A program made the translations under genes and the position numbers. Positions 1,997-64,000 of a DNA stretch of 64,000 nucleotides are shown one piece after another; positions within the stretch are counted from its first letter, which is position 1, and the number at the start of each line of letters is the position of its first letter. Origin of the DNA: Panacagrimonas sp. (lineage in GTDB: Bacteria > Pseudomonadota > Gammaproteobacteria > Nevskiales > Nevskiaceae); the NCBI GenBank assembly GCA_052387695.1, contig JBQTIX010000044.1, positions 54,620-118,619 of the forward strand, written 5' to 3'. The notes below the pieces were generated by a model that had not been told where the DNA came from, made no database searches, and saw only the letters and a program-made list of their open reading frames with translations.

Positions 1997-4900
1997 ACGA
2001 CCAGCGTCCTGCTCCGGTGCACGTCCCCGGGCCCACTGCCTTGCGCGCGGTACTGGGCGGGGCATTTGCCAAGGGCATGGATTACGCGCGTCGCGGGCAG
2101 GTCCTGGGCGTGTGGTGGGAGACGCCCGCCGGACCCCTGGCGGCGCGTGTGCAGGGGACCGAGGACGAGCCCTACCAGTGCCGGATCACCTGGTCCGACC
2201 TGAAGGGGCGGCTGGAGGTGGAAGGTGAATGCAGTTGCCCGGTCGGATTCAACTGCAAGCACGTTGCAGCCGCGCTGATCCAGGCCAACATCCGGCCGCC
2301 ATCGGACCACCCGCCGGACGAGGCGGAGGTGCCGCCGCCGGTGCTGTCGATGCACGCGCCCGACCAGAGGATGGAGCCGGATTGGCAGCGACAGGTTCGT
2401 CAGCCCTTTCCCGGCGCGCCGCCGCGCGCCAGCCGCAGCCCGTTCGAACGGTGGAGGGATGCGCTCAAGTCCGCGGTCGAGCCGGGAAGATCGGCTGCGC
2501 CGCCACCGGATGTGCCGGAACGGTTGCTGTACCTGTTGTCGCCCGACCCCGACGTCCCGGTGCCGCGCGGGGTGCAGGTGCAGCCGGTGGTGGCGCGAGC
2601 GCTCAAGGGGGGCGGCTTCAGCACGCCCAAGCCGCTGAACAACGGTCCCGAAAGTCAGGCGCGCTACGTGACGGACGGGGATCGGCGTCTGCTGTCCCTG
2701 ATGCGGGCGCAGCAGTCGCCTGGCGCCGGATTTCGCGTCGAGCAGGACTGGGGCGTGGAGTTGTTGCGCAAACTGCTCGACAGCGGGCGTTGCCACTGGC
2801 TCGATGTGAACACCCCCGCGCTCAGGTCCGGACCGGAACGCCGCGGACAATTCATGTGGGACCTGGGCGCCGACGCGCACAGCCGGCCGCGGCTCGACGT
2901 GCCGAATTCGGCCGCGGTACTGCCGCTTGCGCCGCCCTGGTATGTCGATACGCGCGCGCAGCTCGCCGGTCCCGTCGAGACTGGACTACCGCCGGGAGTC
3001 TGCTGCCAGTTGTTGCTGGCGCCGCCGCTGGCGCCCGCCGATGCAACGCAACTGCTGGCCGATTGGGGAGCGGCGCTGGGTGAGTGGTCGCAGGCCGTGC
3101 CGGCCCCGCCGCAACCGCGGATCGACCGGCGCAAGGGAATCAAGCCGGTGCCGGTGTTCGAACTCTCGCGCACCTTGCTGCGCCGGTACTACGGGCCGGA
3201 AGAATGGTTCGACGTGGGACGGCTGAGTTTCGACTACGACGGCGTGCGCGCCCCGCCCGGCGGCGCCGACCAGGCCCTGATGCAGGTCGATGGCGATCGC
3301 GTGATCGAGATCACGCGATCGCCGGACCGCGAGAACAAGGCCAGTCAGAACCTGCGCTCGATCGGAATTCTTCCGATGCAGGACGACTACGGCCGGCCGA
3401 TGCCCTACTGGGTGCCCAATCCCACCGTCGGCCGCGCCGGATGGATCGACTTTCTCGCCGTGCAGGCGCCGAAGCTGCGTGAGAAGGGCTGGCGCATCGA
3501 GGTCGCGGAGGATTTCCCCTGGCGCCTGCATGAGCCGGATGACATCTGGGACGCAGACATCGAGGAGGGTCGTGACTGGTTTGACCTAGCGCTCGACGTG
3601 ATGGTCGATGGGACGCGCACGAAGCTGCTGCCCTTGCTGGTGGCGCTGCTCCACCAGACCTCGGACCGGCTCGACCTGCCCAGGCTCAAGGCCCTGTCCG
3701 ACGACGCTCCGGTCGTGATCCGCGACGAACACGGCCGCCTGATCCGCCTGCCCGCGGGGCGCATCAAGCCGATCCTCGGCACCCTGCTGGAGCTGTACGA
3801 CGAGCGACCGCTCAGCGCCGACGGCCGCCTGCGCCTGCCGCGCAACGCCGGCATGCTGCTCGACGGTCTGGGCGAACACCTGCGTTACTCCGGCGGCGGG
3901 ACCGTGCGCGAACTGGCGGAGCGGCTGCGCGGCGTCTCCGGCCTGGACCCGGTGGAGCCGCCCGCCGGTCTCCAGGGCGAACTGCGTGATTACCAGCGTC
4001 ACGGCCTGTCCTGGTTGCAGTTCCTGCGGCGCATGGACCTGGCCGGGGTGCTGGCCGACGACATGGGCCTGGGCAAGACCGTGCAGACCCTCGCGCACGT
4101 TCTGCTCGAAAAAGAACAAGGCCGGCTGGATCGGCCGGCGCTGGTGATCGCCCCGACCAGCCTGATGTTCAACTGGCGCCGCGAGGCCGGACGCTTTGCC
4201 CCCGCGCTGCGCGTGCTGGTGCTGCATGGGCTGGATCGCCGACGGGATTTCGAGCGCATCACCGAACACGATCTGGTGCTGAGCACCTATCCACTGCTGG
4301 CGCGCGACATCGAGGTACTGAAGGCGCAGCCCTGGCATCTGCTCGTGCTCGACGAGGCGCAGAACATCAAGAACGCCAAGTCCAAATCGGCACAACTGGT
4401 GGCGCAACTCGACACGCGGCATCGGCTGGCGCTCACCGGCACGCCGCTGGAGAATCATCTCGGCGAACTGTGGTCGCTGTTCCATTTCCTGATGCCGGGT
4501 TATCTGGCCGACGAGCGCGCGTTCCGCCGCCGCTTCCGCACGCCGATCGAGAAACACGGCGACGCCGAAGTCCGCACGCAACTCGCTCGCAGGATCGCGC
4601 CTTTTCTGCTGCGCCGGACCAAGCAGGAAGTCGCCTCGGAACTGCCGCCGCGCACCGAGATCATCCGCAGCGTCGCGCTCGAAGGCGCCCAGCGCGATCT
4701 GTACGAAACCGTGCGCGCAGCGATGCAGGAAAAGGTGCGGCGCGAGATCGAACAGCGCGGCCTGGCGCGTTCACAGATCGTCGTGCTCGATGCCCTGCTG
4801 AAACTGCGCCAGATCTGTTGCGATCCGCGTCTGCTGAAAATGGAATCGGCCAGGTCCGTGCGCGAATCGGCCAAGCTGGATTTGCTGATGAACCTGCTGC

Positions 4901-53513: not shown

Positions 53514-54029
53514 TCAGACTCCACTGCTCTTGAGCATGGCCTCAACCGCGGCCTTGATCTCGTCGTCCGACAGGTCCGGGTTGCCGCCGCGTGCCGGCAT
53601 GGAATTCTTGCCCTTGATCGCAGACACGACCAGCCCATCCACTCCGCCGACCGCCGAAGCACGCGCAGACCATGCGGCACCGTCGCCGCTCTTCGGTGCG
53701 CCGAGCACGCCCGCCATGTGGCAGGCATTGCAGGCATTGGCGAGAACCTGTTCCGCTGTGTACGGCGCGCGGGCGGTCTTGGTGACCGCCACTTTCACCA
53801 GTGCGGCGGGGTCGGTGACGACGCGGGCCACCGGTTTGATGCGCTCTTCGAGCTTGACCAGGGCCTCGGGATCGGCGCCCTTGTCCGGAATGACGATCCG
53901 GGCGGCCACGATGCAGATGAAGAAGATCGCACCCAGCGCTGCGAGCACCAAGCCGAAATTGACGAAGAAAACCTGGTCGTGGTTCTTGTGTTCCAAGCGG
54001 AAGCCCCCTTTTACAACGACGTAAAACAT
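53514..54029 (-). CDS. Cytochrome c5-family c-type cytochrome, membrane-anchored
   Basis: N-terminal TM helix, haem-binding CNACHMAG and distal Met region (GKNSMPARGG). The ORF 53514-54299 upstream part is antisense to tRNA-Arg, so start set at ATG 54029. Confidence 0.75.
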   Translation of the reverse strand: MFYVVVKGGFRLEHKNHDQVFFVNFGLVLAALGAIFFICIVAARIVIPDKGADPEALVKLEERIKPVARVVTDPAALVKVAVTKTARAPYTAEQVLANACNACHMAGVLGAPKSGDGAAWSARASAVGGVDGLVVSAIKGKNSMPARGGNPDLSDDEIKAAVEAMLKSSGV

Positions 54030-54129
54030 CCCTTGCGACGCCCGCGAAGTATACCCGCTGGCATGCTTCGGTCTGCAACGCCCACCGAGACTGTGTAAGG
54101 CTCGCGGTGCGGCTACATTCTGATCGACA

Positions 54130-54190
54130 CGCCCGCAACTCAACTGGGTAGAGTACTGCCCTCCGAAGGCAATCGTCAGACGATTTCCCT
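54130..54190 (+). pseudogene. Partial tRNA-Arg-like copy (D-arm + anticodon arm with CCG anticodon) directly upstream of the intact tRNA-Arg(CCG)
   Basis: 54139-54171 (CTCAACTGGGTAGAGTACTGCCCTCCGAAGGCA) matches the intact gene's D/anticodon arms almost exactly. Acceptor and T arms are absent or replaced by an unrelated hairpin. Confidence 0.45.
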
Positions 54191-54212
54191 GCTGTAGAAT
54201 CAGCGCCCACAA

Positions 54213-54289
54213 GCGCCTGTAGCTCAGCTGGATAGAGTACTGCCCTCCGAAGGCAGTGGTCGGACGTTCGAATCGTCTCAGGCGCACCA
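54213..54289 (+). tRNA. tRNA-Arg (anticodon CCG)
   Basis: GCGCCTGTAGCTCAGCTGGATAGAGTACTGCCCTCCGAAGGCAGTGGTCGGACGTTCGAATCGTCTCAGGCGCACCA: canonical cloverleaf, 7-bp acceptor stem, encoded CCA. Confidence 0.9.
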
Positions 54290-54316
54290 AATCAAGCACT
54301 TAGGCCACTTTCGCCG

Positions 54317-54490
54317 GTGCCCAAGCCTCGCGGTGTCCATGTAGGGCAAAGGTCTTTCGAGCCCTCCGCATTTCTCCGTGCCCAAACGAGGGCGCTGGTC
54401 GCGGTGCCCGTCCGGTGCCCAAATCGTGCCCACGCGGTGCCCAAATCGGGTTGGCCTTCGCGCCAAATGACGACTGCTCACCCGTGCCCA
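54317..54490. promoter_or_regulatory. Array of 7 direct repeats of GTGCCCA(A); four consecutive copies phased at exactly 11 bp (54404, 54415, 54426, 54437)
   Basis: Read directly. Lies between tRNA-Arg (+) and the 3' end of the HEPN-like gene (-). Confidence 0.5.
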
Positions 54491-54565
54491 AAGCTGGGCG
54501 AAAAACATCCGTAGGGCGAACCGGCAATCGCTCGCCGAACGCCACGAGGCGCGGGTTGCGGCCCG

Positions 54566-55222
54566 TCACACGACCGGGAACGCGATGCCGCCGTAGTCGA
54601 CCTCCGGGTGTTCGAGCATTAGCTCAAGGGTGATGGGCACCAGGTCGCCGAGCAGGGATGCTCCATCGCCGACCTGCTGCCGATTGACGCGCCCGTTCCA
54701 GGTCGCGCCCCCGTGGACCAGCTGATTGCGCAGGACGTATAGCCGGTCGAATACGATCCCCAGTACCACCAGCGTGTCCTGGCCCATGACCGAGCGCAGC
54801 GCAGCCTTCTGGCCGGCGGTGAACTGCTGCTTCCAGGCATCGCTGCTGTCGTGCTCGCGCAGCGCGCGCCAGAAAGGTTCGAAGACGAACCGATTGTCGA
54901 TGAGCACGCGCACCGGCCCGGTGAACTTCTCGAAGATCAGCCGGTGCAGCCGCTGCTCCGAATCCACGGAGAGCAGCCGCGCCAAGAACTGCCTCAGCAG
55001 TTCGCGTTCCGTCTGCTCGAATCCAAACGCTTGCGCATAGGCGGCGTTGAAGGCGATCCACAGGAAGATGAACCTTGCGTCGAGGTCCTCCGCTTCGGCC
55101 TCGGCGCGACGCAGCCAGGAGACGGCGCGATGGATACGAATGCGCGTGTCCTGGTCGTAGCTCGCCTCGCGATCCTTGAGTTTCGCCTTCAGCGCATCGG
55201 CCTGTGCTTGCATTGCGGACAT
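54566..55222 (-). CDS. HEPN-like protein (putative RNase / abortive-infection-type toxin), 218 aa
   Basis: C-terminal LYVLRNQLVHGGATW contains the HEPN Rx4-6H motif in its common RNxxxHG form; otherwise all-alpha composition. Family not assignable from sequence alone. Confidence 0.5.
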   Translation of the reverse strand: MSAMQAQADALKAKLKDREASYDQDTRIRIHRAVSWLRRAEAEAEDLDARFIFLWIAFNAAYAQAFGFEQTERELLRQFLARLLSVDSEQRLHRLIFEKFTGPVRVLIDNRFVFEPFWRALREHDSSDAWKQQFTAGQKAALRSVMGQDTLVVLGIVFDRLYVLRNQLVHGGATWNGRVNRQQVGDGASLLGDLVPITLELMLEHPEVDYGGIAFPVV

Positions 55223-55435
55223 GGGGCGTGAGCGGTAGTGGCGGTTCCCTACTGTGATGGACGAATTTCGTAGATCGCAAGTCCTTGGTTTTGGGGTGCT
55301 CGCGACGACAGGGTCATGGCCTAAACGCTCGGGGAGTCAACGGCTTCCTCTGTTCGGGAGGCTCTAGCGGGCGCAAACTCGCACCGAGAGGGCCATGGCA
55401 GAAGTGCCGCGCCGTGATAACAGAACGCCAAGGGG

Positions 55436-56737
55436 ATGTGGGTGAACTTAGCCGAGCAAAAGAAGAACTTTGTGACAGAACAACTGTTGGCGGCCTATAA
55501 GAAACCTGTGCCGGCGATCGCGGAAATAGCGGGTTTTGAACTGTCGGTCGACGAGGAAAGATTTCCGGCGGTCGTGCAGGAAACCTCCTATCGGGCGTTC
55601 GCCCCGGCGAACGTCGGTGTCCACCTTCCGCGGTTTCAGGCGCTGGCCGAACGTTTGGCGTCTGAGCGCCCAGCCGCCGTTCGGGCGCTGATCGAGGAGG
55701 AAATCGAATGGGCCGCCGGCATCGAATCTGGATTTGTCCCCGAACTCCGCCCCCGCTCGCTGCGGCGATATCGCGCCGCCTTATCGGTCCTAGTCGACCT
55801 GCTGGGCCAGAACTGGGTCTATCGATTCCGTGATCACCAACTGGAGATGGCGCCTCCCGACTTCACCGAGGCATCCAGTTCGCCAGAAGGTGTCGCGAAG
55901 CAGAAGCGGCAAATCAGGCTGGCAATGAAGACGGAGAGGCTGGCGCAACTGCAGCCCGAATCTGTTCGTCGATTCATTTTTGAAATGGAGGCCTCCAGAT
56001 CCCACCACGGGAAGCCCGAATGCTCAATCCTGGACTTGGTCGCCGACGGCAGCGCCTTGATCGACGACCTGACCGCCGCCAAGGCCGCTCTGGATGCTGG
56101 CAACGCAGAGCCGTTTCTAAACGTCGTTCAGCCCTATCTTCAGCTCGCGCAAGAGGATGATCGCTGCCCCGAGACCGGCCTGCGTCTGATCGATATTTGG
56201 CGTTATTTCCGCTATTTCTGGTCGCTGCCGTACTTCAGCACGCCAGGCCGAAACCTGTTCTATCTGGTCCGAGATCGGGCCCGCCCATTTCACCCTATCA
56301 TCGGCATCGCAGCTCTCGGCAACTTGATCGTACGTTTAGCAGATCGGGAGCGATTCCTGGGTTGGGACGTGGAGGGCATCCAGGCGTCTGTCGACGCCGC
56401 CCCTGATCCAGCCGAGCGGCAGACGCTTTTGGAACATCTGTATCGGCACTACTTGCGACAACTCGAAGTCGATATTGCCTCGCTGGACCCCAAGGGGATT
56501 GTGACGGCGGCCGAACTTGCGGCACCGACCATGGATCTTGTCCAGCGGCTCCTGTCAGATGCCCGCGAGAGTGCTTACCGAAGCGTCCGACGTACGTCGT
56601 CGGTCGTCGGTCGTCATAGCCTCTGGGGCTGTGTCGCGACCGATGACGCAAAGGCAGACGTCCTCGTCATCGGCGGCCGCACGTGCTTGGGCAAGCGAGA
56701 GGCGAATTGGCGTACCTTCGGTTCCGGCTTGGTATGA
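55436..56737 (+). CDS. Hypothetical protein (433 aa); central region RLIDIWRYFRYFWSLPYFSTPGRNLFYLVRDRARPFHPIIGIAALGN. Possibly DUF4338-like, but this is a recollection, not a verified match.
   Basis: Divergent from the HEPN-like gene. C-terminal ~60 codons overlap the convergent gene 56555-58216, so the true 3' end or frame is uncertain. Confidence 0.45.
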   Translation: MWVNLAEQKKNFVTEQLLAAYKKPVPAIAEIAGFELSVDEERFPAVVQETSYRAFAPANVGVHLPRFQALAERLASERPAAVRALIEEEIEWAAGIESGFVPELRPRSLRRYRAALSVLVDLLGQNWVYRFRDHQLEMAPPDFTEASSSPEGVAKQKRQIRLAMKTERLAQLQPESVRRFIFEMEASRSHHGKPECSILDLVADGSALIDDLTAAKAALDAGNAEPFLNVVQPYLQLAQEDDRCPETGLRLIDIWRYFRYFWSLPYFSTPGRNLFYLVRDRARPFHPIIGIAALGNLIVRLADRERFLGWDVEGIQASVDAAPDPAERQTLLEHLYRHYLRQLEVDIASLDPKGIVTAAELAAPTMDLVQRLLSDARESAYRSVRRTSSVVGRHSLWGCVATDDAKADVLVIGGRTCLGKREANWRTFGSGLV

Positions 56738-58216
56738 CTTCACCTCGATGCGCATCGACCACGCGCTGAAACGATCGCGCAGTTCAAAATCGTAGGTGCC
56801 CGTCCCTTGGTACCGGAGATCCGCGCCCCCGGGTTCGCCGGACTGCACGACGATCCCGGTCTCGAAGAGGGCGTCCGCGAACGCCTTTTCCGCCAGTTGT
56901 CCGATTTTTAGCAGCCGTCTGAAGTCGGCTTGCTCCTGGGCGATTGCCTCCGCATGGCTCAGTCCGGCAGCCAATGAAGTCGGGTCCGCTGCGAGTTTTC
57001 GCACCCGCGCCATGTCGACGCCTGATCGACGGATTTCCAGGTACTCGCGGCACCCCTCGCGATCGCCAGAAAGCTCCAAAAGGTCTTCGGTGCACGAGCC
57101 GGTCAGCAGCAGCAGGTGAGTGCGGCACTCGGTGGACATCAACGCCTGCGAGAGTTTGGCGTTGTCGGCCTTCCATTTCTGAAGACGAATCAGCGCGTCG
57201 CGATGGAGCTCTGCGTGGAGGTGCTTGATCTGCAGGACCGCGTCGCTCAGCTGACGCCCCAGGTCGACTAGGGTGAGCCGTCCCGGGAGGGGTAGGTCGA
57301 CGCCAAGCGGCATCAGGCTTGCCATCCAATCCATGGCGGGATCGAGTTCGTGGAGGTTCTCGAATATCTCCGTGCCGACGTCGTGCTCTTGCCCTCCGTC
57401 AAACGCACGCATTTCGTAGGCCGCTTTGAAGTCTCCTCGGCGATTAGGAATCACCTTTCGCTCGCCGATCGCGACTAGTCCGAGATGCCGAAGGCAGCGC
57501 CCGAGCCACTGCTCGGCCTGCTCTGCGGAAAGTCTGAGATGGGCTGCAAGAGCCGCGACCATGCCGGTCCGTTCGATGGTTTTGAGAATTGCTTCAAGAG
57601 CCCAACTCATGGCGGGATCGAAGTCGAACCCCTTTAGACTCGCGATGACGAAAGTCTCCCCCGGGCCGCGGGAGAGATCGTTGAGGAACGATGCGTGTCC
57701 CTGGCGACGTTCGTCGGCCGGAACGCTTGGCTCGACGAGGCCGAGGATCTTCGAGATCACGCGTGCCATCGCGTTGGCGTCCTTCCCGAACTTACCTTGC
57801 CGGATGCGCCTGTTCACGTCATCTGACGCGTCGTACAGCTTGAGCTCGTTCAGTGGTTCGGAAAGCTGCATGCCTTGATGGATCAGCAACGTCCGCCAGT
57901 CGGCGCCGACGGCGTGCAGAATGTCGAGCACAGGCTCCCCGATTGGACTCGTAGCCGATTCCTGGGCCAACTCGTGCCGGGCCTTGAGGACGCCGAAGCG
58001 ATTCGGGATCACCGCAAAACCTCGCGAACGGTCGAGCAGACCACCGAGGCTGTATCGAGACAGTAGGCCACAGAGCGCGCTGCACCATGCCAGCTTCTCT
58101 GTGTCGCCACCTGCAACTGGCATTGCGGCGAGGGTTCCGCATTTGGTCACATCGGCAAGCATATCCTCCGGTTCGAACCGCATCCCGGGCAGGCCCCAGC
58201 CGGCTTCGATGAGCAT
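56555..58216 (-). CDS. Large hypothetical protein with a DUF3883-like C-terminal domain (restriction-endonuclease-like fold)
   Basis: C-terminus …GTGTYDFELRDRFSAWSMRIEVKSYQAGTEGTPIRLSLAQARAAADDEDVCLCVI resembles the DUF3883 pattern (GYDfe…IEVK…S..E). The track ORF extends to 58528, but residues 1-58 are encoded by the tandem-repeat region, so ATG 58216 (MLIEAGWGLPG) is proposed. Confidence 0.5.
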   Translation of the reverse strand: MLIEAGWGLPGMRFEPEDMLADVTKCGTLAAMPVAGGDTEKLAWCSALCGLLSRYSLGGLLDRSRGFAVIPNRFGVLKARHELAQESATSPIGEPVLDILHAVGADWRTLLIHQGMQLSEPLNELKLYDASDDVNRRIRQGKFGKDANAMARVISKILGLVEPSVPADERRQGHASFLNDLSRGPGETFVIASLKGFDFDPAMSWALEAILKTIERTGMVAALAAHLRLSAEQAEQWLGRCLRHLGLVAIGERKVIPNRRGDFKAAYEMRAFDGGQEHDVGTEIFENLHELDPAMDWMASLMPLGVDLPLPGRLTLVDLGRQLSDAVLQIKHLHAELHRDALIRLQKWKADNAKLSQALMSTECRTHLLLLTGSCTEDLLELSGDREGCREYLEIRRSGVDMARVRKLAADPTSLAAGLSHAEAIAQEQADFRRLLKIGQLAEKAFADALFETGIVVQSGEPGGADLRYQGTGTYDFELRDRFSAWSMRIEVKSYQAGTEGTPIRLSLAQARAAADDEDVCLCVIGRDTAPEAMTTDDRRRTSDASVSTLAGI

Positions 58217-58462
58217 CCCCCATTTCGCGTTGAGCTCCGGAAGGGGAACGACGTCGAGCCCCAGGTAATCGGCGGCGAGGGCGTGAAACTCCTTCGAGGC
58301 CGGTTCTGTGCGGTTGTCCGCGTGTTTTATGCAGGGCACGGGACAGTGCTGGCATGGGTTACTCCGAATCTGGCTTAAGGGGCATTCCGAATTTGTGTGC
58401 TGGCATGAAGAGATCGAATCCGGACCCCGCAGGCCGCGGGGTCCGGACTCGTTGTCGGGCTT

Positions 58463-58830
58463 ACCGACAGCGGTCATACCGCCTCGTGGTGTACGCCACG
58501 CCATGGACTCGAAGGTGTCCGCCGCCAAGTGCGGGTCCGGATTCAGCCGGTGCCGGGAGTACCGGCGGCGGTCTTACCGCCTCGTGGTATTCGCCACGCG
58601 TAGACTCGAACGAGTCCTAAACCGCCAAGTGCGGGGTCCGGATTCAACCGGTGCCGGGGATACCGGCGGCGGTCATACCGCCTCGTGGTGTATGCCACGC
58701 CAGAGACTCGAATCGAGTCCGCTTCCGCTCGTCGCGGGCCCGGGGCTGGCCCGGGGCTGGCCCAGGGCCGGGATTGCCAGCAGCGGTTTTTCTCCGCCTC
58801 GTGGTGGTGCCACGCCTGCCCAGTGCGTAG
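58463..58830. repeat. About 3.5 tandem copies of a ~100-bp highly structured unit (period 98, 101, 116 bp), each containing several perfect hairpins (e.g. GGCGG…CCGCC, CGTGGtgtacgCCACG, ACTCgaacGAGT, CCGGattcaaCCGG)
   Basis: Read directly. An 11-bp-stem hairpin (CCGGACCCCGCaggccGCGGGGTCCGG) lies just upstream at ~58414-58440. One frame spuriously encodes AWRTPRGGMTAAGIPGTG three times. Confidence 0.7.
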
Positions 58831-59193
58831 GGCATCGCCAGATCGAATTGCAAATCGGTGATGTTCGTTTGTACTCGCCGGCACGGACTCCAAGATGCGG
58901 TCAAACGTTGTAAGCGTTTTCCTCAGAGGTACTTGCGACGATGCTGCCATCAGCTGTCGTTAGATCGCGAAGAGGCGCGGAGATATCGCGCACCGTTCCT
59001 GGCGTCCCGTTGCCGGTGCTGCCGGTGCTGCTGATGCGCACGCGGTTACGCGCGAAGATCTCCGCAAGCACATCCGGTTCATCAGGGATCTGGTCGCGGC
59101 GACCGACCTTTACTTGGCCGCAACGATGTAGCGGCGCGTGGCCGGCAAGCGCGTAACCGCCTCCCGGGTGCCGAGGCGGCCAATATGCAGAGG

Positions 59194-59224
59194 AGACACC
59201 GCGGGCCTGAGCCCGCGGTGTCTC
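59194..59224 (-). terminator. Perfect 14-bp-stem hairpin GAGACACCGCGGGC-ctga-GCCCGCGGTGTCTC overlapping the rtcB stop codon (terminator-like; no U-run)
   Basis: Read directly. Confidence 0.4.
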
Positions 59225-60398
59225 ATCCCTTCACGCACATCACCTGCTTGAGCGTATGCACGACCTCCACGAGGTCGGACTGGTTGGCCATCACGGCGTC
59301 GATGTCCTTGTAGGCCCCGGGGATCTCGTCCAGCACCCCGCCGTCCTTGCGGCACTCCACGCCCTCCGTCTGGCGCTTCAGGTCCTCCACCGTGAAGTGG
59401 CGGTTGGCCTCGTTGCGCGACATCTTGCGACCCGCGCCGTGGGCACACGAGCACAGCGATTCCGGATCGCCCTTGCCGCGCACGATGTAGCTGCGCGCAC
59501 CCATGCTGCCCGGAATGATGCCGAGGTCGCCCGCGCCGGCACGGATTGCACCCTTGCGGGTCACCCACACGTCCGCGCCGTAGTGATGCTCGCGCGCCAC
59601 ATAATTGTGGTGGCAGTTGATCGCCTCCTGCGTCGGCGTGAACGGCGGCAGGTGACGCGCCAGTGCCGTGAGCACCAGCGTCATCATCGCGCGACGGTTC
59701 TCCATGGCGTAGTCCTGCGCCCAGCCCACGGCTTCCAGGTAGTCGTCGAACAGCTCGCTGCCCTCCACGAGGTAGGCGAGGTCCCGATCCGGGAGCTGGA
59801 TTAAGTGCCGCTCCATCTCCTTGCGCGCCGACTCGATGAAGAACTGCCCGATGCGGTTGCCGATGCCGCGCGAACCCGAGTGCAGCATCACCCACACGTC
59901 GTCGTTCTCATCGAGACACAGCTCGATGAAGTGATTCCCGCCGCCAAGCGATCCCATCTGCCCCTGCCAGTCGGCCTTGAGCTTGGGGTACTTTGCCTGG
60001 ATGGTCTCGAGGCCCGGCGCGATGCGCTCCAGCGCATCAACCTGCCAGCGGGCATCCTTGTGCGCGCCCATGCCCACCGGCACATCGCGCTCGATCTGGG
60101 AACGAATCGTCTTGAGGCTGTCCGGCAGCGCCGAGGCCTTCAGCGACAGGCGTACCGCATTCATGCCGCAGCCGATGTCCACTCCGACCGCGGCCGGGAT
60201 GATCGCGCCCTTCGTGGGGATCACGGAGCCCACGGTTGCGCCGATACCCAGATGCACATCGGGCATGGCCGCCACATGGTGGTGAATGAACGGCAGGCTC
60301 GCGATGTTCGCAAGCTGCGCCTGCGCGTTGTCGGCGATATCGTCGGTGTAGATCTTCACGGGCACCTTGCCCTGTGACAGAACCTTTCGGATTGGCAT
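59223..60398 (-). CDS. rtcB: RNA-splicing ligase RtcB (3'-phosphate/5'-OH RNA ligase)
   Basis: 391 aa with RtcB hallmarks: metal/GMP-binding His/Cys/Asp residues (…DIGCGMNAV…, GGGNHFIEL, MLHSGSRGIGN, HNYV…, CSCAHGAGR). Confidence 0.9.
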   Translation of the reverse strand: MPIRKVLSQGKVPVKIYTDDIADNAQAQLANIASLPFIHHHVAAMPDVHLGIGATVGSVIPTKGAIIPAAVGVDIGCGMNAVRLSLKASALPDSLKTIRSQIERDVPVGMGAHKDARWQVDALERIAPGLETIQAKYPKLKADWQGQMGSLGGGNHFIELCLDENDDVWVMLHSGSRGIGNRIGQFFIESARKEMERHLIQLPDRDLAYLVEGSELFDDYLEAVGWAQDYAMENRRAMMTLVLTALARHLPPFTPTQEAINCHHNYVAREHHYGADVWVTRKGAIRAGAGDLGIIPGSMGARSYIVRGKGDPESLCSCAHGAGRKMSRNEANRHFTVEDLKRQTEGVECRKDGGVLDEIPGAYKDIDAVMANQSDLVEVVHTLKQVMCVKG

Positions 60399-60470: not shown

Positions 60471-61598
60471 TCACTTCGCCTTCAGGCTCACGAGCTGGCC
60501 CAGCAGGCCTTCCAGACCACCAAAGACCGTCAGCTTCTCGATCTTCTCGGTCACCTTCTCCAGCGCTTCCAGCTCCTTGAGTCGCATCAGGGTCGGGCTC
60601 TCCTCGATCAGCTTGGCGCTGTTGAGCAGGGAACGGGTTGCGTTCGCCTCCTCGCGGCGGCGAATCACGTTGGCCTGCGCCGCCTTCTCCGCCTGTACCA
60701 CGCTGTTGAGAATCTCCTTCATCTCGCCCGGCAGGATCACGTCCTTCACGCCGACACCGAGAACCTCGATACCCATCTCGGAAACGCGACCCTTCGCGTA
60801 CGAAAAGATGTCCGCGTCCAGGCTCGCCTTGTCGCCGAGCAGCTCGTCCAGCGTCTTTGCAGAAACCGCCTTGCGCAGACCGAACTGCAGCTCGCGGTAC
60901 AGGTAGTCCAGGTACTTGGCGACCTTGGTCTTCACCGTTACCGCATCCGTCACGCGGATGCTGGCCGACAGGTTCACACGCAGGCTCACCTTGTCCTTGG
61001 TCAACAGCTCCTGACCCGCCACCTCGACACTCTGCACGCGCAGCTCGATCACCTCCGCGCTCACGTTCTTCTGGAAGTTCCAGAAGGCATAGGCGCCCGG
61101 CGCCAGGGTCCGCGACAGCTTGCCGTCGACAAACACCAGGCCCGCGGACTCCGCCGGCACGTTCACCGCCACGGCGAAACGCTCCAGCACGCCGATCTGG
61201 CGCAGGCGCTTGGCCGCCGCGTCCGGAACTTCGAGACCCTCCGTCAGCGGCAGCTTCTCCACCGACACCGACACCGGGCCCTTCCAGTACAGCTTGCGGC
61301 TACCCGGTGCGAGCACGTCTTCCAGCTTGCCGTTCTTCGACACCAGGCCGACCTCGGTCACCGCGATATCGGCGAGCACAAACGTGTCGGCCAGCGCGGC
61401 GCCGAGACGCTGCACCAGAACCTCCACATCCTTGCCCGCGTATTCCACGGCCGCGAGATCGAACATGCGCACCTCGCTGCGCGCGAGCAGATCCCAGATC
61501 CAGGTCACGCCCGGACCGAGCACCCGCTCGAAACGACGGTTCTTGTAGAGCAGGGCGCGCTCACCGTCGCCAACCACGACCCGCTTGATTCCCAACAT
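60471..61598 (-). CDS. SPFH/band-7 (stomatin/prohibitin/flotillin-like) domain protein
   Basis: 375 aa; characteristic SPFH segment DVILPGEMKEILNSVVQAEKAAQANVIRRREEANATRS and C-terminal coiled coil. Internal ATG 61598 chosen (the upstream ORF extension is Cys/Arg-rich junk). Confidence 0.8.
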   Translation of the reverse strand: MLGIKRVVVGDGERALLYKNRRFERVLGPGVTWIWDLLARSEVRMFDLAAVEYAGKDVEVLVQRLGAALADTFVLADIAVTEVGLVSKNGKLEDVLAPGSRKLYWKGPVSVSVEKLPLTEGLEVPDAAAKRLRQIGVLERFAVAVNVPAESAGLVFVDGKLSRTLAPGAYAFWNFQKNVSAEVIELRVQSVEVAGQELLTKDKVSLRVNLSASIRVTDAVTVKTKVAKYLDYLYRELQFGLRKAVSAKTLDELLGDKASLDADIFSYAKGRVSEMGIEVLGVGVKDVILPGEMKEILNSVVQAEKAAQANVIRRREEANATRSLLNSAKLIEESPTLMRLKELEALEKVTEKIEKLTVFGGLEGLLGQLVSLKAK

Positions 61599-61932
61599 GG
61601 CATTTCTCCTTTGGGGGTGGTGGCAGCAACAACATCCAGTCCGCGCTCGCTGCCATGACGCGGACTGTTCAACGAAATAGGAAGGGCGGCCCCTGACGAC
61701 ACCGCGGGGAGAAAGGGCGATCACCGTCGGGAGATGGCGGGGTCCGGTACGCGGCCCGTGCCGACAGCACACGGTGATGCGTACCCTTGTCCGTCATCCG
61801 CCGAAAGCAACGGCGATCTCTCGGCCGTCGGTGTCGCTGTGGCTTCCGGACTCATCTGGCCGAGGCCCGAATCCGCCGGACGCCACACGGGGCTTCCCCG
61901 GTTTGCAGCAACACTGGTTTTCAAGACCAGAT

Positions 61933-62005
61933 CGAAGTGGAGCGGGAGTCGAACCCGCGACAGGCGCATTACGAATACGCTGCTCTACCCTCTGAGCTAT
62001 CCAGT
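61933..62005 (-). tRNA. tRNA-Thr(CGT)-like gene, probably a degenerate or remnant copy
   Basis: Minus strand reads CACTGGA-TA-GCTCAGAGGGTAGAGC-A-GCGTATTCGTAATGCGC-CTGTC-GCGGGTTCGACTCCCGC-TCCACTT-C. D, anticodon (CGT) and T arms are canonical, but the acceptor stem has 2 mismatches and no CCA. Confidence 0.45.
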
Positions 62006-62218
62006 GGTGAAAGGGCATCAGCCCTTCCGAGGCATCGGCCGTCGTGCGTCCACGGCATACGCACCGGCAATGCCGGGCGCACCGGACGGGTGGGACATCT
62101 CCCGAACCCGCGCCGCTGTGAACCGCCGTACAGATCGATGCCGATTGGCGTCTCGTGGGAAACGCCAATTCATGGGGCGGGCTGCGACATCAACTCCGCC
62201 GAATCTCGAACTCCTTCG

Positions 62219-62317
62219 CGAACGGAAAACAAAACGCCCCGGGAGGCAGGCCTTCCGGGGCGTTCGCGAATCTATCGGAAGGTCGGAGTACCGACCTTCC
62301 TGTTTGTCGTCAGGTCA
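62219..62317. terminator. Back-to-back terminator hairpins: CGCCCCGGgaggcaggccttCCGGGGCG with AAAACAAAA upstream (intrinsic terminator for the minus strand), and GGAAGGTCGGagtaCCGACCTTCC followed by TGTTTGT (plus strand)
   Basis: Read directly; GC-rich stems with flanking T/A-runs. Confidence 0.5.
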
Positions 62318-62597
62318 GGTCAGTCGATGGCAAGCATCGGCTACATTCGTCGGCAGGCTGGGCGCCCGCAAGCCGAACGACGCCGTGTCCAGGCATTCAT
62401 GCCCGGATGTGCGTGATGGTTGATGGGTGGACCTGAGAATCATCGAAGGTTGATTGGAAAAACTGCACCGACCGGTGCGAAGGGCGCGCACTCTACGCTC
62501 GGTGATTGTGAGATTCAACAAAGATTCCAAATAAATTGTGCAAGCGATCACGAACGTCCGGATTGCGCTTTGTGTTTTCGTTGCATCATTTCAGCGC

Positions 62598-63410: not shown

Positions 63411-63484
63411 GCAAGGCTGGCCTAGCGGTCGGGCTCCTGCCTTCCAAGCAGACGAGACGGGTTCGACTCCCGTGCCTTGCTCCA
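63411..63484 (+). tRNA. tRNA-Gly (anticodon TCC)
   Basis: GCAAGGC…CTGCcttCCAaGCAG…ACGGGTTCGACTCCCGTGCCTTGCTCCA; anticodon loop CTTCCAA with U33/A37; discriminator U + CCA. Confidence 0.8.
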
Positions 63485-63488
63485 ATTC

Positions 63489-63576
63489 GGATGGTTCGCA
63501 TAGCGGCCATTGCACCTGGCTGTAAACCAGGCGACCCCTCGGGTCTTCCAAGGTTCGAGTCCTTGACCATCCACCA
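63489..63576 (+). tRNA. tRNA-Tyr (anticodon GTA), long variable arm
   Basis: GGATGGT…CTGGCTGTAAACCAG + extra arm GCGACCCCTCGGGTC + T-arm GGTTCGAGTCC + CCATCCACCA. Confidence 0.85.
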
Positions 63577-63605
63577 GTACGCGTTCTTCAGTATTCAATT
63601 TTTAT

Positions 63606-63681
63606 GGTGGCCGTAGCTCAACGGCAGAGCCCCTGGTTGTGAGCCAGGAGGTCGCGGGGTCAGCACCCGTCGGTCACCCCA
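63606..63681 (+). tRNA. tRNA-His (anticodon GTG) with G-1 / C73
   Basis: G-GTGGCCG-TA-GCTCAACGGCAGAGC-C-CCTGGTTGTGAGCCAGG…CGGTCAC-C-CCA. The extra 5' G pairing with discriminator C is the His identity element. T-loop reads GTCAGCA (non-canonical), so confidence is reduced. Confidence 0.7.
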
Positions 63682-63686
63682 ACATC

Positions 63687-63829
63687 GGGTCGTTCGTCCA
63701 AGGGCAGGACCCCGGACTCTTTGATTCGGCGAAGCCGGATCAAAGCAAAACCGTGCTCTGTGTTGTTGAAGCGGCTGCACCGCTTCAACAATGCGGCCGA
63801 TCTCGGTTCAAGTCCGAGGCGACCCACCA
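63687..63829 (+). ncRNA. 143-nt tRNA-like gene with a ~72-nt insertion in the variable region: canonical acceptor stem (GGGTCGT/GCGACCC), D-arm, T-arm (CTCGGTTCAAGTCCGAG) and CCA, but an 8-nt anticodon-like loop
   Basis: Read directly. The extra region contains perfect hairpins (CTTTGAT…ATCAAAG; TTGTTGAAGCGGctgcaCCGCTTCAACAA). Position inside a tRNA operon. Confidence 0.45.
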
Positions 63830-63832
63830 AAT

Positions 63833-63917
63833 GCCGACGTGGTGAAACGGAATACACGCGACGCTCAGAACGTCGTGCCCTCAGGGCTTGCGAGTTCAAG
63901 TCTCGCCGTCGGTACCA
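63833..63917 (+). tRNA. tRNA-Leu (anticodon CAG), long variable arm
   Basis: GCCGACG…CGACGctCAGaaCGTCG + extra arm TGCCCTCAGGGCTTG + T-arm GCGAGTTCAAGTCTCGC + CGTCGGTACCA. Confidence 0.85.
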
Positions 63918-63922
63918 ACTCC

Positions 63923-64000
63923 ACCCCCGTAGCTCAGCGGAACCAGAGCGTCCGCTTACGAAGCGGAAAGTCGGAGGTTCAAATCCTCCCGGGGGTACCA
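63923..64000 (+). tRNA. tRNA-Arg (anticodon ACG)
   Basis: ACCCCCG-TA-GCTCAGCGGAACCAGAGC-G-TCCGCTTACGAAGCGGA-AAGTC-GGAGGTTCAAATCCTCC-CGGGGGT-A-CCA. Confidence 0.85.

Follow-up and report, generated by a model that had tools for sequence, protein, structure and literature searches.

We analysed a stretch of 64,000 nucleotides from Panacagrimonas sp. (contig JBQTIX010000044.1, positions 54,620 to 118,619 of the forward strand; hereafter the window, to which all positions refer), in which a hairpin-rich, non-coding tandem repeat array (58419-58840), composed of four direct units of 95, 100, 103 and 116 bp, lies on the 3' side of the RNA ligase gene rtcB. The SPFH/Band-7 gene (60471-61772), rtcB (59223-60398; 391 aa) and a TmtA-like gene fragment (56555-58384) are all on the minus strand, so that the order in the direction of reading is SPFH, rtcB, a spacer of ~350 bp (58841-59192), the array and the TmtA-like fragment; SPFH is upstream of rtcB in the operon, and rtcB is the last gene that the region has in common with its relatives. 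A preliminary description of this region had placed the array between rtcB and a DUF3883-like gene, and this placement was confirmed by the matches of the flanking genes (Pfam RtcB, 7e-134; PADLOC TmtA, 2.3e-26, over the profile positions 429-979 of 1063) and by weak NOV_C matches in the full-length homologues of the latter. The TmtA-like fragment, which is truncated at its 5' end, had no Pfam match; the label DUF3883-like is nevertheless fair, because its full-length homologues have a weak NOV_C (DUF3883) signal at the C-terminus, together with a weak GHKL-ATPase signal in the N-terminal part. We take TmtA to be the single protein of the Tiamat defence system.

The array was called by Tandem Repeats Finder (TRF) at 58462-58720 (period, 101; copies, 2.6; matches, 83%), and a separate repeat search over the window found three array copies with spacings of 98 and 101 bp. 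When the phase of the unit was set at the CCGC-N5-GCGG hairpin, four units were obtained: V0 (58427-58521, 95 bp; five of the six hairpin positions present), V1 (58522-58621, 100 bp; six perfect hairpins in succession), V2 (58622-58724, 103 bp; six hairpins, with the differences from V1 confined to loops and linkers) and V3 (58725-58840, 116 bp), which is the most divergent copy and retains the CCGC/GCGG, GCGG/CCGC and CGTGG/CCACG hairpins. A covariance model (R1) was built from the four units, and the scan of the window with this model, run with the filters off, recovered exactly V0, V1, V2 and V3 (84.9, 105.7, 116.4 and 61.6 bits, respectively) and no further copy with E<0.07. Pairwise identity was 86% for V1-V2, 78% for V0-V1, 82% for V0-V2 and 62-64% for V3 against the rest. 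Thus, the tandem repetition of a ~100-bp unit stands as first described, with four units of 95-116 bp instead of ~3.5 copies, and the identity of 85-90% claimed among the copies applies only to the central pair, V1 and V2, the other pairs being at 62-82%. Within V3, an 11-bp microsatellite (GGCCCGGGGCT x 2.9; 58737-58768, TRF) stands in place of the CCGG-loop-CCGG hairpin, which indicates that the locus is prone to slippage. The non-coding nature of the array agrees with its period of 101 bp, which is not a multiple of 3, and a CRISPR array, which the preliminary description had already set aside, was likewise ruled out here, because the entire 101-bp period is repeated, with neither unique spacers nor an alternation of repeat and spacer. 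[quoted passage not shown]

Each unit is a string of five or six perfect GC-rich hairpins with stems of 4-6 bp, in agreement with the several perfect stem-loops per unit reported earlier; the perfect Watson-Crick stems of the unit are CCGC/GCGG, CCGG/CCGG, GCCGG/CCGGC, GGCGGT/ACCGCC, CGTGG/CCACG and GACTC/GAGTC. At the edge next to the TmtA-like fragment, the array ends in a perfect palindrome (58419-58447) with 12-bp arms (58419-58430 with 58436-58447) and a 5-nt loop, and with mismatches allowed this palindrome reaches 58410-58456 (arms of 21 nt, 86% complementarity). It is the first hairpin of V0 (CCGC-aggcc-GCGG), made longer by the 10-15 bases that follow it, GGGGTCCGGA(T/C)TC, which are copied there in inverted orientation. 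The hairpin with an 11-bp stem that had been noticed just upstream of the array therefore exists, with a stem of 12 bp, and is V0's own extended first hairpin, not a separate element. The exceptional richness in hairpins that had been claimed for the array was borne out: it is the densest hairpin cluster in the 64 kb, with 193 stem-covered bases per 420 nt against a window mean of 45 (standard deviation (sd), 23) and 106 in the second-best region, and in 0.96 Mb of other bacterial loci (GC content up to 75%) the maximum was 167. No comparable hairpin cluster was found in nine related rtcB loci (see below). The minimum free energy (MFE) of the whole array was also low (z-score, -6.1 for the minus strand and -5.5 for the plus strand); for the single units, V1 and V2 gave z-scores of -2.1 to -2.5 on either strand and V0 gave -2.8 on the plus strand; V3, and V0 when folded as the minus strand, came out near 0. 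The MFE fold of V1 on the minus strand was six beads on a string, with an ensemble frequency of 57%. The peculiarity of the array is thus the run of short perfect local stems and not the overall stability, the units being modestly unusual in folding energy.

The stems and the unpaired positions of the units differ greatly in their conservation. Between V1 and V2, none of the 57 stem positions and 14 of the 43 loop or linker positions differ (Fisher's test, p=1.8e-6), in line with the earlier remark that most substitutions are in loops, and the same bias was seen in all six pairwise comparisons of the units. Where stems do change, both arms are affected: the third hairpin of V0 is GTCGG/CCGAC in place of the GCCGG/CCGGC of V1 and V2 (C-G to T-A), V3 has an unrelated TGCCC/GGGCA hairpin at the site of GACTC/GAGTC in the other units, and the GCGG/CCGC stem of V3 is kept while its loop is expanded from 3 to 7 nt. 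The palindromes therefore remain intact while loops and linkers diverge freely. The conservation of the stems, taken with the two-arm changes, indicates that the formation of hairpins in a single strand is selected for or mechanistically enforced, RNA and single-stranded DNA (ssDNA) being indistinguishable in this respect.

The array was compared with known RNA families and motifs. Rfam was run twice, over the whole window with the gathering thresholds and over 58000-59300 with a limit of E<=10; the former gave only tRNAs, all outside the array, and the latter gave only chance hairpin-shaped matches (miRNA models, the raiA-hairpin and a frameshift-site hairpin), so that no credible family match to the array was obtained from the Infernal/Rfam check that had been proposed at the outset. 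The identity as Y-RNA-like or tRNA-like RNAs that the preliminary description had considered found no backing either, since neither tRNA, YrlA and Y_RNA nor the self-cleaving ribozymes matched 58000-59300 at E<=10 and ARAGORN found no tRNA or transfer-messenger RNA in the array. Tandem self-cleaving ribozyme units of known classes, such as those of viroids or retrozymes (hammerhead, twister or hepatitis delta virus-like), were rejected on the same lack of an Rfam match and of a conserved unpaired core; the difference between V1 and V2 at one third of the unpaired positions argues against a conserved single-stranded core of a catalytic or a protein-binding kind. No sigma-70-like promoter was detected in 58000-59400, and AT-rich segments are absent from the units; thus, the independent transcription of each unit is unlikely. 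As for other candidates, a sponge for CsrA/RsmA was discarded because the recurrent GGA loop motif was not found, and the occurrence of a AGATCGAAT motif at both edges of the array, which could be read as a target-site duplication or a MITE end, was within chance expectation, as was the link of this motif to TTCGATCTGG beside the tRNA-like gene upstream of SPFH (see below).

The array was also searched for in public data. The pattern used for GTDB (CCGCCTCGTGGTN{3,4}GCCACG; 18 specified bases) was too permissive and gave at least 119 single chance matches in unrelated taxa, and BLAST of the array against those loci showed nothing past the pattern itself. A 24-base pattern gave two single-copy matches in the Joint Genome Institute (JGI) metagenomes, where BLAST, inspection and TRF showed no array and nothing past the pattern. 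Plasmids and phages gave no match to the array by BLAST; among viral contigs there was one single-copy match (L129), taken for chance without inspection, and a second pattern scan of viral contigs gave none. The six-frame translation of the array, concatenated, was compared with 5.8 billion predicted proteins, with the aim of finding arrays miscalled as genes, and no match was obtained. In an exact-protein look-up, RtcB, a 135-aa open reading frame (ORF) of the array and a 218-aa ORF of the neighbouring DNA (see below) were without record. As far as these searches and the 64 kb go, the array is a single-locus orphan of limited general significance.

The genomic context was compared with nine related rtcB loci (L001, L002, L003, L125, L126, L127, L128, L131 and L132; RtcB identity, 78-92%); homologues of RtcB occur in Nevskiaceae, for example in Panacagrimonas at 81% identity. 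The downstream neighbours of rtcB vary in nearly every one of the nine loci, and the gap 3' of rtcB is 4-117 bp in eight of them and ~150 bp in the remaining one (L003), which usually leaves no room for an array. The array was absent from these relatives by BLAST (seven loci) and by the covariance model (all nine). The nucleotide homology to the closest relative (L001; RtcB identity, 92%) spans the tRNA-like gene, SPFH and rtcB and ends at 59223, the last base of the stop codon of rtcB. A hairpin with a 14-bp stem (GAGACACCGCGGGC-tcag-GCCCGCGGTGTCTC; 59193-59224, minus strand), with no U-tract after it, lies over this stop codon and is likely to be the 3' structure of the rtcB transcript. The spacer that follows has no family match, no sigma-70-like promoter and no homologue in the relatives; it contains a 68-codon open frame (58901-59110, minus strand; …IPDEPDVLAEIFARNRVRISSTGSTGNGTPGTVRDISAPLRDLTTADGSIVASTSEENAYNV*), protein-like, without a start codon at its head and without a Pfam or NCBIfam match, which may be the C-terminal remnant of a lost gene.

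Upstream of SPFH-rtcB, two further elements were observed. A gene called as tRNA-Thr(CGU) (61934-62006, minus strand) stands directly upstream of SPFH-rtcB; its acceptor pairs 1:72 and 3:70 are mismatched and CCA is not encoded, whereas the tRNAs of the window for which ARAGORN printed the 3' ends do encode CCA. In L001, the orthologue (3382-3455) would be a tRNA-Arg(CCU) by its anticodon, whose stem has changed in a compensatory manner, and L131 (1633-1779) has two tandem tRNA or tRNA-like genes, the first Arg(ACG) and the second Thr(UGU) with an acceptor of only 4 bp; of the first of these tandem tRNAs, the window retains the 3' remnant only (whole tRNA-like element, 61934-62056). Across these tRNA-like elements, the YrlA model of Rfam scored below its gathering score of 69 bits, with 22.7 bits for the window and 32.4 bits for L131. 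The tRNA-like gene is likely to be a conserved tRNA-like non-coding RNA (ncRNA) attached to the SPFH-rtcB operon. A two-hairpin element that ends in a terminator with a U-tract (62215-62325, minus strand; GGAAGGUCGG...CCGACCUUCC, then AACGCCCCGGAAGGCC...CCGGGGCGUUUU) recurs in conserved form in four genomes, upstream of rtcB or of SPFH-rtcB, with neighbouring genes that are otherwise different (elsewhere L003, 4860-4965; L127, 5712-5815; L001, 3020-3125). The 3' arm of its first hairpin can pair with the 5' arm of the terminator (alternative pairing CCUUCCG/CGGAAGG), as in an attenuator; it had no Rfam family match and was too conserved for an analysis of covariation. The tRNA-like gene and the two-hairpin leader are probably a more promising lead for RtcB biology than the array. 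In addition, five tRNA genes (Gly, Tyr, His, Leu and Arg) are clustered at the right edge of the window (63411-64000).

The other side of the array appears to be a decayed island. Homologues of the TmtA-like protein, collected by an exhaustive HMMER search, are ~1100 aa long and align to the ORF of the window only from about residue 430-465 on; no trace of the missing N-terminal ~450 residues was found by tblastn in 54000-60000, including 58400-59222. The coding homology starts at 58279-58384, just left of the terminal palindrome (58410), and the breakpoint of the truncation (58385-58410) thus abuts this palindrome, with no start codon for the fragment at the junction. The 3' end of a lone DruA-like ORF (55436-56737, plus strand; PADLOC DruA, 1.3e-59) overlaps the fragment convergently; no other Druantia genes were seen near it, and both ORFs look like remnants of defence genes. 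Further left, the 218-aa ORF (54566-55222, minus strand), for which Pfam, NCBIfam and PADLOC gave no match, has a 68.5% nucleotide match to a 215-aa gene (734-1257) a few kb from rtcB in L003, where PLD-like, PD-(D/E)XK and WYL genes are its neighbours. Then comes a tRNA-Arg(CCG) gene (54213-54289); the sequence before it (54130-54182) repeats its 5' two-thirds in degenerate form, at 85% identity, and five GTGCCCAAA iterons (54316-54492) come after it. The region 54130-54520 looks like an att-site arm (attL-like) of an integrated element whose integrase is gone. No integrase, transposase or REP-associated tyrosine transposase (RAYT) was seen among the genes that flank the array. The part from 54290 to 59222 is read as the remnant of one or more integrated elements, with the array at its rtcB-proximal edge, touching a deletion or insertion breakpoint. 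Through an exact-protein look-up, the DruA-like ORF led to a Logan contig (L130, run SRR34758883) that is 100% identical to the window at 54466-57219 and ends short of the array; the strain is therefore represented in public reads.

From these observations, we tentatively favour, as the most plausible of the readings considered yet still short of even chances, a lineage-specific palindromic minisatellite similar to REP sequences and bacterial interspersed mosaic elements (BIMEs), a kind of array that the preliminary description had also named, whose hairpins would act as a barrier on the 3' side of the rtcB transcript and would also mark, or have caused, a rearrangement. A ~100-bp module of six short GC-rich palindromes would have been amplified to four tandem copies at the junction between the conserved SPFH-rtcB operon and the decayed integrated island (attL-like iterons, DruA-like ORF and truncated TmtA-like gene), and would behave as extragenic palindromes of the REP/BIME type. 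If the transcription of rtcB reads through on the minus strand, ~22 consecutive hairpins might stall 3'-5' exonucleases and help to end transcription before the remnant of the island; the putative chain would close with the 12-bp stem, after which comes AUUCGAUCUCUUCAU. In the DNA itself, the palindromes are likely to have caused the rearrangement in which the neighbouring gene was truncated, or else are a by-product of it. This reading draws on the four units, the extreme hairpin density, the conserved stems, the two-sided stem changes, the lack of a known RNA family and the lack of promoter-like sites and AT-rich segments in the units, as well as on the position 3' of the last gene of an operon (as for REP/BIME), the end of synteny, the abutting TmtA-like breakpoint and the slippage-prone microsatellite. 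Several points weigh against it. Transcription of the array, on either strand, is hypothetical; a second copy in the 64 kb was absent by pattern search, BLAST and the covariance model, whereas classical REPs are dispersed; there is no conserved GTAG/CGTC tag and all units are direct; and a 14-bp hairpin belonging to rtcB itself already stands ~350 bp before the array. Moreover, the covariation that had been suggested as a check on the structure was weak when examined formally within the four related units (double changes at two pairs, a number reached in 86 of 500 shuffles), no strand signal was obtained from the asymmetry of G.U and A.C (five cases for the minus strand and six for the plus strand, all at stem edges), and palindrome-correcting template switching, rather than selection, could account for the conservation of the stems. 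Should the chain of hairpins have a function, it would offer an unusually clean example of modular extragenic palindromes, arranged in tandem, that selection on single-strand structure has maintained; it could then be a natural terminator, a cassette that stabilises RNA, or a hotspot of recombination bordering a defence island.

The alternative that survives best, though we consider it unlikely, is that a mobile element left the array behind as a relic at the level of DNA: the units would derive from the att or end region of an integrative element bearing the 3' end of an initiator tRNA, amplified by slippage or recombination, and the hairpins would matter, or have mattered, in ssDNA for a recombinase or transposase, with no present RNA function. 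The position of the array coincides exactly with two breakpoints (the stop codon of rtcB, where synteny ends, and the TmtA-like truncation), the surrounding 5 kb are those of the decayed island beside the tRNA-Arg with its five iterons, the stems are pure Watson-Crick palindromes without strand asymmetry, and the end of the array is an inverted duplication, but neither an integrase nor a transposase or RAYT was seen in the flanking genes, the 9-10-nt repeat (A)GATCGAA found on either edge of the array is no more than chance would give, and nothing similar was found in plasmids, phages or viral contigs. On the minus strand of every unit, CGGTTGAATCCGGACCCCGCA matches 19 of 22 positions of the T-arm and 3' acceptor strand of Escherichia coli tRNA-fMet (sequence verified against 5426 E. 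coli genomes), with a local score of 27; shuffles gave 15.5 (sd, 2.3), and none of 19 other tRNAs scored above 20. The 3' end of the target tRNA is a frequent part of integrative elements, and the match thus fits an att-derived origin; however, the matching stretch is short and was picked post hoc, one base of the T-loop and the CCA end are missing from it, and the tRNA models (Rfam and ARAGORN) reject the units.

Somewhat less probable again is a neutral minisatellite without function, in which a palindrome-rich stretch was duplicated by slippage, its stems only appearing conserved, through the correction of quasi-palindromes by intrastrand template switching and through the faster mutation of exposed loops. 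The orphan status of the array (nothing in relatives, in the metagenome and viral pattern scans, in plasmids and phages or among predicted proteins), its place in decaying DNA beside a pseudogene, the microsatellite, the absence of a strand signal and the weak formal covariation would all suit this explanation, but the bias of 0/57 against 14/43 is very strong, the hairpins of V0 and V3 differ in sequence yet hold their positions, and the hairpin density is above anything in ~1 Mb of comparison DNA.

A connection with RtcB, which the preliminary description had proposed, appears improbable. In this explanation, the array would give structured ncRNAs functionally tied to RtcB, for example substrates for repair, decoys, RNAs that resemble Y RNAs or tRNAs, or a tandem precursor from which ~100-nt units are cut and then re-ligated or circularised by RtcB. 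The array does lie on the 3' side of rtcB and has a strong hairpin at its end if the rtcB strand is the one read, its stem conservation is consistent with a structured RNA, the minus-strand fold of V1 is well defined (57% ensemble frequency), and both bacterial Y RNAs with a tRNA-like domain and RtcB RNA-repair operons have been described (PMC4201824, PMC7790460). However, the nine related rtcB loci are without the array and homology to the closest relative stops at the stop codon; no match to YrlA, tRNA or a ribozyme was obtained (Rfam, E<=10); Ro60/TROVE gave no match in the array-flanking genes or in ten window ORFs of 418-801 aa, smaller ORFs not being scanned; there is no promoter-like site; and, with one third of the unpaired positions of V1 and V2 different, there is no conserved single-stranded core. 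A search of the literature on RtcB-linked tandem-repeat RNAs in bacteria turned up nothing relevant. We found no evidence for a connection with RtcB and infer that the array is not an RtcB-specific RNA. The most specific form of this idea, that the array is co-transcribed with rtcB on the minus strand and cut to ~100-nt multi-hairpin clients of RtcB, either re-ligated or circularised or serving as decoys for an RNA-cleaving toxin or phage factor, is very improbable; if true, it would mean that a tandem-repeat RNA in bacteria is coupled in function to an RNA ligase and was recently acquired in this lineage.

Compared with known systems, the array departs from REP/BIME in its lack of the tag, its palindrome types and the absence of alternating orientation, and falls outside YrlA, tRNA, CRISPR, ToxI-like antitoxins and known ribozymes as well. 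ToxI-type (type III antitoxin) units are ~34-45 nt long, form pseudoknots and precede an endoribonuclease toxin of the ToxN/AbiQ type; the array resembles them in its tandem direct repeats, followed by a strong hairpin and then by a gene on the same strand, but a ToxI-like antitoxin was rejected because the units are 95-116 nt and the downstream ORF is the truncated TmtA-like fragment. The mycobacterial interspersed repetitive unit-variable number tandem repeats (MIRU-VNTRs) and the arrays of Neisseria intergenic mosaic elements (NIMEs) are intergenic tandem units of 50-150 bp that are prone to slippage and whose outer copies are diverged, and NIME units have, at their borders, short inverted repeats that act as sites of integration. 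The array shares with them the intergenic tandem units of this size, the proneness to slippage and the diverged outer copies, and the NIME repeats resemble its att-like segment with similarity to a tRNA 3' end, but both kinds are dispersed at many loci per genome and are not chains of perfect hairpins. YrlA RNAs are found beside Ro60 orthologues and carry T- and D-arm-like stem-loops on a long stem (PMC4201824). Like YrlA (RF02553), the array is a structured RNA candidate near an RNA-repair ligase gene and its unit has a short T-arm-like segment, but it has no YrlA match, D-arm or closing stem, and Ro60 was not found in the ORFs scanned; the tRNA-like element upstream of SPFH-rtcB (61934-62056, 22.7 bits) is closer to the YrlA model than the array is. 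REPs are palindromic repeats of 20-40 bp, for which termination and mRNA stabilisation are among the roles proposed (PMC3733652), and for REP/BIME termination and the protection of mRNA 3' ends are likewise among the proposals (PMC3733652, PMC3116915). By the definition in PMC3733652, REP/BIME sequences have one type of imperfect palindrome of 20-40 bp with a GTAG/CGTC tag at one end, whereas the array units have six different perfect palindromes of 13-17 bp, GTAG occurring before one hairpin of V1 only and CGTC only in a loop of V3. REP/BIME occur as alternating inverted pairs and the array units are all direct and in tandem; and the former are dispersed in high copy number together with RAYT, whereas the array is the sole copy in 64 kb with no transposase-like match in the flanking genes. 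With REP/BIME of Gammaproteobacteria (including REPINs and GTAG/CGTC-tagged REPs), the array nevertheless has in common that short GC-rich extragenic palindromes with conserved stems are clustered, in non-coding and lineage-specific form, 3' of the last gene of an operon.

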